Origin: Synechococcaceae cyanobacterium
GTDB taxonomy: Bacteria > Cyanobacteriota > Cyanobacteriia > PCC-6307 > Cyanobiaceae
Length of the DNA: 64,000 bases
Assembly: GCA_046342775.1 (NCBI GenBank)
Contig: JBKDOR010000095.1
Span: 10,152-74,151 of the forward strand
Direction: 5' to 3'
Shown piece by piece: positions 6,628-8,919 of the stretch. Within the stretch, counting starts at the first letter, position 1. Each line of letters begins with the position of its first letter. A program made the translations under genes and the position numbers. The notes under the pieces were generated by a model, which was given only the letters and a program-made list of their open reading frames with translations, made no database searches and was not told where the DNA came from.

Positions 6628-8919
6628 TCAGAGTTTGCGATCGGCCGTCCACTGGCCGATGCGGAAGATGACGAATTCAGCCGGGCGGAGCGGCGCCAGC
6701 CCGATCAGGCACACCAGGCGCCCGTTATCGAGATCGTTCTGCGACATGGTGGACCGATCGCATTTGACAAAATAGGCCTGCTCTGGCCGGTCGCCGAGCA
6801 AGGCTCCATTCTGCCATTCATTCAGCAGGAAATCCTCGATGGTTCGGCGCACATTGGCCCACAAACGTGAACCGTTCGGCTCAAACACGGCCCACTGGGT
6901 TCCCTTCTCGATCGAGCGTTCGACGTAGGCAAAATAGCGGCGGAGGTTCACATACTTCCATTCCGGATCGGAACTGATTGTGCGGGCACCCCACAGCCGC
7001 ATGCCCCGGCCCTCAAAGAAGCGGAAGCAGTTGATGCCCTCGGGGTTCAGCACCTCCTGCTGAGCAGTATTCAGCCGCTTTTCAAAACCAAGAGCGAGCC
7101 CTACCACTTCATTGGCGGGTGCCTTGTAGACAGCGCGCTGGATGTCATTGCGGGCATAAATGCCGGCGACAAAGCCCGAAGGAGGATAATAATTTTCCTG
7201 GCCGGTGTTGGGATCGATGATGCGAACCCAGGGGTAATAGAGAGCGGCATGGCTGGAATCAAACAGGCCGCGATAAGCGCGCACTTCAGCAATGCTATGT
7301 CCCTCGATGCTGTCCAGCACGGCGATGCGGTAACGCATCGCGCGGGCATGGCTGATCAAGGCATTGGCGATCGCCTGGGGTTCGTTGGCACCCATGTTGC
7401 GCCGAGTGGATCCGGGTGCGGCAACGATGGAGATGTCTTCAATGCCTTCGAACTGCCGCAGTCCGGTGGTGCGGTTGTTGGTGAGTTGGGTTCCCGCAAA
7501 TGCAGCGGCGTTTGGAGCTTGCCCGTCGCTGCCATTCTGAAGCAGGAACGTCGCGGTGGTGATGTCAGCTGAAGCTGGATCAGCATCGAGCTGGGCGCGC
7601 GTGAAGCGGTTGGTGGCCTGTGCCGCGGCGATGTAGCCATTCAGGAAGGTCAGCCCATCGATCGTGCCGCCATTGGCGACGGTGGCGGTGTAGGCCGCTG
7701 CGGCCGCTGCCTCTTCGCCTGCGGCAGAATCGCTGGCGGCGACCGCGGCGATGCGCGCCTGTTCGGCTGCGGCAAGGTCAAGTTCCGCCGCCGCCAGTTG
7801 GGCCTCGCGTGCCGTGGCGGTGGCGGCTGCGGCGTTTGCGGTGGCTCTCTTGGCCGGGGCATCAGCGGCGGACGCGGACTCCGCCGCAACCGCGGCCGCT
7901 TCAGCAGTGGTCGCTGCAGTACGGGCGTTGGTGGCGTTGGTCTGGGCTGTGTTGCGCGCCGTGGTGAGGGTGCCGACGCGTGCCGTTGCGGTATTGGCCT
8001 CCGTCAGCAAGGTGGCCGCCCGTGCCTGGGCAGCCGTCCGCGCCGCCAGGGCTTCAGCCACGGTCATCGCGGAGATCACGATCGGGATCGTGCGGGCCCG
8101 GGCTTGCGAAGCAGGCTCAACCGCAAAATGGGCAAACAGAGAATCCTGCGCCCCGCCCTGCTCATGCAGTGGATCGAGAGCTAGATCGGCGGCCACATAG
8201 CTCGGCAGCTCCCGTGACACCTGATCCACCGTGATGGTCACGGTGATTGGCCGCACCTGGACCGTGGCCCGTGCCGCCGCGAGATCCTGCATCACAAACT
8301 CGATCGAGGTGCCAGGCGCCCCATCGGTGGAACCACGGAAGGTCCAGGTGTTGGTGAGCGCGGCGTAGGTGAGCAGGTAGAGACCCGACCGGTCAGCGCC
8401 ACCGACGACAAAGCCCGTGACTCGCACCACATCGCGATGGCGTGCGCCACGCACCCTGGCGACGCCGTCTTCCATGGTGAACCGGTTTTGACCGCGAAGA
8501 AAGCTCAGCCGCACCCGCGCCTCGCCAGCTCGGCCCGGGAAACGAGCTCGCATGGTGACGTTAGCCGGAGGGAGCGGATTGACCACGCTGGCGCAATCAC
8601 GTACGAAATCCGTGGAATCGCTGCCACTAGGGCTGAAGGCACGGGCGACGTAGAGACGTTTGCCACCCTCTTCAAAAAATGCTCGTACAGCGTTCCAAAG
8701 ATGGTTATCCACTGGACCACCACCCCAATCGAGAGGGAGCCTGCCGCCAAAGGTCTGCTCAAACTCGACGACCGAGGTGATCAGCTCCGGTTCCAGATCA
8801 ATCGGTCCATAACGGCTGGCACCAACAAATCCCGTTGTCGTTGTACTGACCCCTTCAATCGATTTGGCACGATAGGAGGTTTCCTCGATGAAGACGCCGG
8901 GAGCAAGATATTCAGGCAT
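6628..8919 (-). CDS. Contractile tail sheath protein (763 aa)
   Basis: MPEYLAPGVFIEE, GFVGASRYGP, AALYYPWV, PPSGFVAGIYARND, KAPANEV, WGARTISSDPEWKYVNLRR, FEPN, PAEFVIFRI. Confidence 0.96.
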   Translation of the reverse strand: MPEYLAPGVFIEETSYRAKSIEGVSTTTTGFVGASRYGPIDLEPELITSVVEFEQTFGGRLPLDWGGGPVDNHLWNAVRAFFEEGGKRLYVARAFSPSGSDSTDFVRDCASVVNPLPPANVTMRARFPGRAGEARVRLSFLRGQNRFTMEDGVARVRGARHRDVVRVTGFVVGGADRSGLYLLTYAALTNTWTFRGSTDGAPGTSIEFVMQDLAAARATVQVRPITVTITVDQVSRELPSYVAADLALDPLHEQGGAQDSLFAHFAVEPASQARARTIPIVISAMTVAEALAARTAAQARAATLLTEANTATARVGTLTTARNTAQTNATNARTAATTAEAAAVAAESASAADAPAKRATANAAAATATAREAQLAAAELDLAAAEQARIAAVAASDSAAGEEAAAAAAYTATVANGGTIDGLTFLNGYIAAAQATNRFTRAQLDADPASADITTATFLLQNGSDGQAPNAAAFAGTQLTNNRTTGLRQFEGIEDISIVAAPGSTRRNMGANEPQAIANALISHARAMRYRIAVLDSIEGHSIAEVRAYRGLFDSSHAALYYPWVRIIDPNTGQENYYPPSGFVAGIYARNDIQRAVYKAPANEVVGLALGFEKRLNTAQQEVLNPEGINCFRFFEGRGMRLWGARTISSDPEWKYVNLRRYFAYVERSIEKGTQWAVFEPNGSRLWANVRRTIEDFLLNEWQNGALLGDRPEQAYFVKCDRSTMSQNDLDNGRLVCLIGLAPLRPAEFVIFRIGQWTADRKL

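Follow-up and report, generated by a model that had tools for sequence, protein, structure and literature searches.

A predicted antiparallel two-helix hairpin inserted in the main sheath protein of a contractile injection system from a Synechococcaceae cyanobacterium

In several contractile sheaths the conserved core is interrupted by lineage-specific domains that point away from the tube, among them Alg2 of AlgoCIS, gp18 of phage T4, and the sheaths of phage 812 and of the type 2 and type 3 phages. Domains III and IV of AlgoCIS Alg2 extend outward (PMC8894135). A survey of 112 phage sheaths found the extra domains to be mainly Ig-like β-sandwiches, and mostly α-helical ones only in phages AR9 and PBS1 (Evseev et al., 2022, PMC9230969). 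Cis2 of the cytoplasmic contractile injection system of Streptomyces coelicolor (8BKY, 8BL4, 9GTP, 9GTS), which displays a variable, flexible domain 3 on a sheath surface that tolerates a YPet sandwich fusion (Casu et al., 2023, PMC10066040), is by sequence the closest solved relative of the protein treated here, while the contracted sheath of Halogeometricum borinquense (9EZM) is the best structural match to its complete model. This protein is the main sheath subunit encoded by a contractile injection system (CIS) operon in a stretch of 64,000 nucleotides, hereafter the window, from contig JBKDOR010000095.1 of a Synechococcaceae cyanobacterium (GCA_046342775.1, positions 10,152-74,151). It contains an Ala/Thr-rich insertion that very probably folds as an antiparallel two-helix hairpin, and the reading favoured below, with a probability of roughly 0.5, is that such hairpins form a brush of free arms around the particle.

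The open reading frame (ORF) of 763 amino acids matches the Pfam families PF04984 (Phage_sheath_1; 2.8e-19, 70 bits against a cut-off of 31.4) and PF17482 (Phage_sheath_1C; 6.3e-15, 55.5 bits against a cut-off of 26.9). In a phmmer comparison with solved structures 8bky came first (6e-103) and 9ezm second (6.6e-102), whereas a Foldseek search with the whole model placed 9ezm first (7e-21) and S. coelicolor Cis2 at ranks 2-4 (8bl4, 2e-14). The N- and C-terminal domains both align with those of Cis2. With these family matches, the similarity to solved sheaths and the tail-like operon around it, the ORF is a genuine contractile sheath protein. It would polymerise around the tube and contract.

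A preliminary description made from the DNA letters placed a helical insertion of about 135 residues between conserved sheath regions and proposed that it is a long antiparallel coiled-coil hairpin projecting from every subunit. The 135-residue string that it quoted is present exactly, at residues 284-418 of the sheath (window 7666-8070); the coordinates it gave, 7670-8075, are shifted by 4-5 nt and would be out of frame if translated as they stand. Its account of the composition holds as well, as the string contains 60 Ala (44%), 20 Thr (15%), a single Pro (Pro355) near the middle and one aromatic residue, a Tyr; it also contains four Gly. The GC content of the hairpin segment is 73%, compared with 59-61% across the remaining sheath gene.

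Alignment with homologues confirms a true insertion. Of the 120 homologue clusters that matched best, about 100 have sheaths of 718-800 aa, while about 20 have sheaths of 620-640 aa. In the latter only 6-15 residues separate the IPIVI strand from the DGL helix, against about 138 in the window sheath, and the long forms carry inserts of 97-162 residues at this site. The hairpin is found in about 100 of the 120 clusters and is consequently not unique to this genome. The preliminary description had counted such a wide occurrence among close homologues against its own proposal, but the commonness of the insert leaves the structural reading unweakened.

An AlphaFold2 (AF2) model of the window sheath, built on an alignment of 84 sequences, predicts two helices of 62 residues joined by a 5-residue turn (Table 1). 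The predicted local distance difference test (pLDDT) scores are 92-98 over both helices of the monomer, so that disorder, the other outcome that had been held to speak against a hairpin, is not what is predicted. A second AF2 model was made of a distant homologue from Sphingomonas, the insert of which has 111 aa; its helices are 44 and 50 residues long, indicating that the length of the arm scales with the length of the insert. Since the short forms join the two ends of the insert by 6-15 residues, the chain must go out and return with its ends adjacent. Sheath residues 591-763 (window 6628-7149), which form the most conserved domain, have a pLDDT below 50 in both models, while the variable middle part is above 90. 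The low C-terminal values may be caused by low alignment diversity or by strands swapped in from neighbouring subunits.

The family alignment points to the same fold. Across 66 homologues with inserts of 97-162 aa a Pro/Gly breaker is found at the midpoint of the insert (regression slope 0.56), and in the family there are 9.1 Pro per 100 residues within 8 residues of the centre, compared with 0.75 in the arms, a 12-fold enrichment. Sister sheaths with cores that are 92-93% identical have inserts differing by 29-56 residues, and both arms lengthen together. As an example, P0013 has an insert of 162 residues with a Pro at 79, while P0014, the core of which is 92% identical, has an insert of 106 residues with a Pro at 54. 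Both of these come from Sphingomonadaceae metagenome-assembled genomes. Heptad-like peptide repeats are found in both arms of P0013, ARDTARA-like in arm 1 and TAETAL-like in arm 2, and both arms look as if they had been extended by short duplications. The window copy differs in this respect. The only DNA repeats in its hairpin segment are two trivial short duplications (9-18 nt) and weak dispersed repeats, and slippage or tandem repetition was therefore rejected as its origin.

The heptad of helix 1 is unbroken over all 62 residues; its a/d positions read VRAAVRAAA / AALALAAAA and are 89% hydrophobic (shuffle p=0.0004). In helix 2 the a/d positions are almost pure Ala (AAAAAASAA / AAALQAGAA), and 83% are hydrophobic compared with a background of 61% (p=0.106). 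Fourier analysis of Kyte-Doolittle values for the window hairpin alone gave no significant periodicity; the analysis of binary hydrophobicity and a/d register was more informative than such spectra. A periodicity of 3.45-3.5 residues recurs in many members of the family. The Ala-dominated a/d positions make the predicted hairpin Alacoil-like. In an Alacoil the helices are very closely spaced (about 7.5-8.5 Å), with Ala at the contact positions. Antiparallel two-helix coiled coils of this type were reportedly described by Gernert et al. in 1995.

Taken alone, the hairpin segment matched no Pfam family and no PDB sequence at E-values up to 1. With the hairpin part of the model, Foldseek returned weak matches (E 0.07-0.3) to colicin E3 (2b5u), the N-terminal part of RipA (6EWY, 9HMX) and Rad50. 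The predicted helices, the central breaker, the co-varying arms and the heptad of helix 1 together bear out the antiparallel hairpin of the preliminary description, and this fold, considered by itself, is very probable. Within a single chain, residues 284-421 would then pair as an antiparallel coiled coil of two helices that measures about 9 nm, has an Ala-dominated, Alacoil-like core and is inserted into a loop of the protein's variable middle region.

The history of the insertion was followed in a tree of the sheath core, calculated from an alignment with the insert removed and including 67 hairpin forms. Sixty-six of these make up one clade (support 0.98), from which short forms are absent. 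P0112, the one other hairpin form, pairs with the short-form P0094 just outside the clade, at a weakly supported node. The simplest history suggested by the tree is one gain and perhaps one loss. The hairpin would have been gained once in a CIS lineage of Sphingomonadales type and retained afterwards, with fast drift in both sequence and length. Most members of the clade are Sphingomonadales, and Sphingomonas, Novosphingobium, Sphingomicrobium, Erythrobacter, Sandarakinorhabdus and Allosphingosinicella are among those named.

The subclade of the window sheath is nested within the Sphingomonadales sequences. The host genome is cyanobacterial, as it contains phycobilisome genes, one of which is on the same 155-kb contig 3.7 kb past the window (C95:77864-78340). 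Of 36 further genomes from this genus, just one contains an orthologue of the sheath, with 81% identity. Given this occurrence and the nesting among Sphingomonadales, horizontal acquisition of the whole CIS operon by this cyanobacterium appears to be the best reading. The same observations point to a recent transfer between phyla.

In its rate of evolution the hairpin exceeds the core 4- to 8-fold. Its identity to the window copy is mostly 20-40%, compared with 50-60% in the N-terminal and 67-80% in the C-terminal part of the protein, and even the close relative P0011 is only 41% identical in the hairpin, against 88 and 90% in the two flanking parts. For three pairs the ratio of non-synonymous to synonymous substitution rates (dN/dS; Nei-Gojobori) was 0.20-0.56 in the hairpin and 0.05-0.12 elsewhere, values that are rough since dS was about 1 or higher. 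Positive selection on the hairpin was rejected, the ratio being below 1 in all three pairs, with dS saturated. The evolution of the hairpin thus appears to be fast and relaxed, yet still purifying. In the homologue alignments no conservation was seen past the base of helix 1. On average the inserts of the family contain 35% Ala, 10.5% Asp and 9.4% Thr, and their net charge has a mean of -8 (range -21 to +2).

The analysis thus shows the insertion, its distribution in the clade, its evolutionary pattern and a predicted hairpin fold. From these it can be inferred where the hairpin is placed and what it does. In solved sheaths the extra domains are on the outside, and the domains that form the lattice leave no space for a 9-nm rod. 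Such a rod is too large for the sheath wall, which argues that the hairpin must be external. Most likely each subunit holds it out freely into the solvent, and a dense, mostly acidic brush of such arms would cover the particle. This coat may act as a steric and electrostatic spacer or shield that limits lateral sticking to other particles, envelopes and debris, without binding anything specifically. The change in arm length of 2-4 nm between nearly identical cores, the unconserved distal sequence and the acidity all argue against a fixed lattice or a specific partner. Net charge and freely drifting length likewise argue against the cross-linking of particles into arrays, and the lack of a hydrophobic or basic tip leaves a membrane tether without a supporting feature. 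As a whole, from the model to the proposed role, this reading is given a probability of about 0.5.

A number of observations weigh against it. AlphaFold gives Ala-rich helices easily, and the quality of the two AF2 models is uneven, as the conserved C-terminal domain has a pLDDT below 50 in both. Helix 2 of the window protein has no significant heptad (p=0.106, and p=0.74-0.99 in other periodicity tests). The dN/dS values are rough with dS at or above 1. The acidity of the window copy is weak, with 13 acidic residues against 9 basic ones, and its Ala/Thr content is above that of the family. Moreover, since Ala occurs on more than one face of the helices, it would be equally compatible with bundles of adjacent hairpins.

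This last point leads to the main alternative, considered unlikely, in which the hairpins lie along the sheath and zip with their neighbours into alanine-zipper four-helix bundles. Such an outer mesh would keep the metastable sheath in its extended state, determine the threshold for firing or join particles side by side into arrays. Apart from the Ala content of 44%, heptad positions 3, 4 and 6 of helix 2 are almost all Ala, and Ala-rich cores are reported from multi-strand coiled coils such as honeybee silk (PMC12284834). The distances would also permit it. With the rise of 38.5 Å and twist of 23.1 degrees of the S. coelicolor sheath, surface neighbours along a strand are estimated to be about 5-6 nm apart, which a 9-nm arm could reach. 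That related sheaths have independently gained Ala-rich helical inserts at other sites fits as well. A fixed contact is, however, hard to reconcile with arms that change by 2-4 nm between cores of 92-93% identity and that have no conserved surface positions away from the hairpin base. The net negative charge disfavours self-association and arrays, and contraction more than halves the rise, from 38.5 to 17.2 Å (with a twist of 26.6 degrees in the contracted lattice), so that a mesh would have to break. A version in which the hairpins are a working outer layer and no passive coat, with alanine zippers that make up a second, helical safety net around the extended sheath and unzip for contraction, thereby tuning the firing threshold or linking particles laterally, is doubtful indeed. 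Were it true, the independent Ala-rich inserts elsewhere could be convergent answers to the same mechanical problem.

Next after the mesh in likelihood, but improbable too, is that the hairpin is tolerated filler, a helix-prone, low-complexity, Ala-rich segment gained by a permissive surface loop in GC-rich genomes, which folds as a hairpin without any selected function. This would agree with its being the fastest-evolving part of the protein (20-40% identity against 55-90% in the flanks), with its drifting length and elevated GC content, with a sheath surface that accepts insertions as large as YPet, and with the absence of an accompanying partner gene. Yet the hairpin is kept in all 66 members of a well-supported clade whose cores have diverged down to about 50-60% identity, the sole possible loss being that of P0094, which as the sister of P0112 lies outside the clade at the weakly supported node. 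Its dN/dS is below 1, equal arms with a central breaker need selection for a paired fold, and similar helical inserts have arisen independently at two or three other sites.

It is very unlikely that the hairpin is a docking arm that binds a cargo or effector, a factor for assembly or disassembly, or a component of a membrane or envelope, and in this way tethers or loads the particle. Long antiparallel coiled coils do serve as binding arms elsewhere, and the Foldseek matches include the receptor-binding hairpin of colicin E3 and Rad50. The α-helical outer domain of the type VI secretion system sheath is the recognition site for ClpV, which also counts in favour of docking. The distal arms nevertheless contain no conserved patch and no hydrophobic or basic tip suited to a membrane, syntenic operons neither gain nor lose a gene together with the hairpin, and its hosts range from Sphingomonadales to a cyanobacterium. 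Finally, a disordered low-complexity linker or an annotation artefact, suggested by the composition and by the absence of Pfam and PDB sequence matches to the segment, is highly improbable given a reading frame conserved in about 100 homologue clusters, pLDDT values of 92-98 in two independent models, arms nearly devoid of Pro and Gly (0.75 Pro per 100 residues) and the heptad core of helix 1.

Table 1. Features of the sheath protein and of the surrounding CIS operon; coordinates are those of the window.
Feature	Position	Strand	Basis
Main sheath gene, 763 aa (P0001)	6628-8919	minus	PF04984 and PF17482
Insertion relative to short-form sheaths, residues 284-421	7657-8070	minus	Alignments with short forms
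Predicted helix 1 of hairpin, residues 287-348	7876-8061	minus	AF2 pLDDT 92-98; unbroken heptad
Predicted turn, residues 349-353, with Pro355 right after	7861-7875	minus	AF2 loop; family Pro density
Predicted helix 2 of hairpin, residues 354-415	7675-7860	minus	AF2 helix
Cap/terminator-type gene (Pvc16_N)	9846-10439	minus	PF14065, 1.5e-26
Conserved 303-aa protein, upstream of sheath	8938-9849	minus	No Pfam match
Tube gene, directly downstream of sheath	6165-6617	minus	PF06841 (Phage_T4_gp19), 1.1e-33
Divergent second sheath-like gene, 914 aa, without hairpin	3417-6161	minus	PF17482 only, 4.9e-09
Second tube, CIS_tube+LysM, GPD hub and gpV spike genes	238-3420	minus	Pfam

On the minus strand the genes of the operon follow each other in the order Pvc16_N, 303-aa protein, sheath, gp19-type tube, 914-aa paralogue, second tube, CIS_tube+LysM, GPD and gpV. 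To the left of the window (L087) the operon encodes a 678-aa protein without a family, gp25, Baseplate_J and a P2_I-like protein. The core set of Afp/PVC-type systems is thus present, with sheath, tube, an Afp16/Pvc16-type cap, spike and a gp25/J baseplate. Neither an Afp15-type AAA+ ATPase nor an Afp13-type tail fibre was found among the scanned ORFs, which stop short of the distal end of the operon and include proteins of 678, 463 and 425 aa with no Pfam match. The particles may be released into the medium to act on other cells, or may be cytoplasmic or anchored to thylakoids.

Gene for gene, the hairpin operon L088, from a Sphingomonas sp., is syntenic with L089, an operon of the short form, from a GerE regulator through cap, sheath, tubes, hub and spike to gp25. 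No partner gene has been gained or lost together with the hairpin in these two, and the synteny indicates that none came along with it. The divergent regulator of GerE/LuxR type precedes both operons (L088 6943-7698, L089 6907-7638) and is a candidate regulator of the system. Counterparts of the 303-aa protein, which has a conserved SSSLFL motif at its end, are found in Caulobacter and Sphingomonas operons, both with and without the hairpin.

The 914-aa protein retains just the C-terminal sheath domain, and the order sheath, tube, sheath-like protein, tube is kept in Sphingomonas, Caulobacter and metagenomic operons. In its L089 relative an internal stretch of about 80 residues is missing. An insertion in the second sheath-like protein that co-varies with the hairpin was considered and rejected, as this protein varies in length from operon to operon independently of the hairpin. 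Also discarded were sheaths that seemed to be very long (870-1110 aa) in some genomic loci; here tblastn had joined the sheath to the second sheath-like gene across internal stops, and L012, for instance, was resolved into a 620-aa sheath and a 947-aa paralogue.

Elsewhere in the same genome there is a second, distant sheath gene (C238:5378-5947, a frame of 495 aa) with 42% identity over the C-terminal domain, which could belong to a second CIS or to a myovirus-type prophage. On the plus strand of the window (15527-17494), some 5 kb away from where the CIS operon begins, lies the gene of an RTX-repeat protein of 655 aa, the metalloprotease domain of which is serralysin/matrixin-like.

Lineage-specific outer domains of sheaths are known, and those described are compact and mostly β-rich. 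If the free-arm reading is correct, a rigid arm of 7-12 nm on each subunit would approximately double the apparent diameter of the particle and alter its surface charge, spacing and accessibility. The question is tractable, since named Sphingomonas strains with known sequences have the hairpin form, among them the cultivable Sphingomonas oligophenolica (P0068), and close relatives that share the operon structure but have a loop of 7 residues provide a natural control; Sphingomonas naasensis KIS18-15 (L010) is a strain of the short form. A loop that accepts more than 100 extra residues could also inform the engineering of delivery particles of the CIS/PVC type. From an evolutionary point of view the hairpin is a clean case of a fast-evolving, length-variable insertion with co-varying arms, and the cyanobacterial copy within the Sphingomonadales clade would document the transfer of an entire CIS between phyla of freshwater-type bacteria.

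Full-text literature searches gave no description of a coiled-coil sheath arm, of a CIS structure from Sphingomonadales or of a picocyanobacterial CIS. The remark in the preliminary description that no sheath with such an arm was known is in line with this, and also with the β-rich extra domains reported in the survey of 112 sheaths. The hairpin arm is apparently undescribed so far and belongs among the known insertions of outer domains in sheaths. For none of the outer domains of AlgoCIS, T4, phage 812 or the type 2 and 3 phage sheaths has a long arm made of a two-helix coiled coil been described.

Ala-rich helical inserts at other sites occur in at least six of 149 representative sheath clusters (P0124, P0127, P0128, P0134, P0148, and P0161; 800-960 aa). 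These inserts are 70-200 residues long, Ala-rich and poor in Pro and Gly, and are located in the variable middle region of related cores. They lie upstream of the LALDPxH motif, whereas the window hairpin lies downstream of it, and they are longer and not obviously simple hairpins. Their presence at two or three other sites indicates that helical additions to the outer region have arisen more than once. Outside the sheaths, the Alacoils, the receptor-binding domain of colicin E3 (2B5U) and the coiled coil of RipA (6EWY, 9HMX) resemble the predicted hairpin in having long antiparallel helices, a tight turn and small core residues. It has no sequence kinship to arms of the 2B5U, 6EWY and 9HMX type, however, and is situated in a polymerising sheath subunit.

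Like the S. coelicolor system, the window system has one main sheath protein. Cis2, however, is only 534 aa long, its domain 3 is small and flexible, and it is without a helical hairpin, while the window sheath has a larger, β-rich middle domain in addition to the 138-residue hairpin, and its operon adds a second sheath-like protein and a second tube. The H. borinquense sheath, with 574 aa, aligned over the core only, and no hairpin was reported in the match. The CISs of S. coelicolor and H. borinquense, which are the closest solved relatives, are not classical released extracellular CISs.

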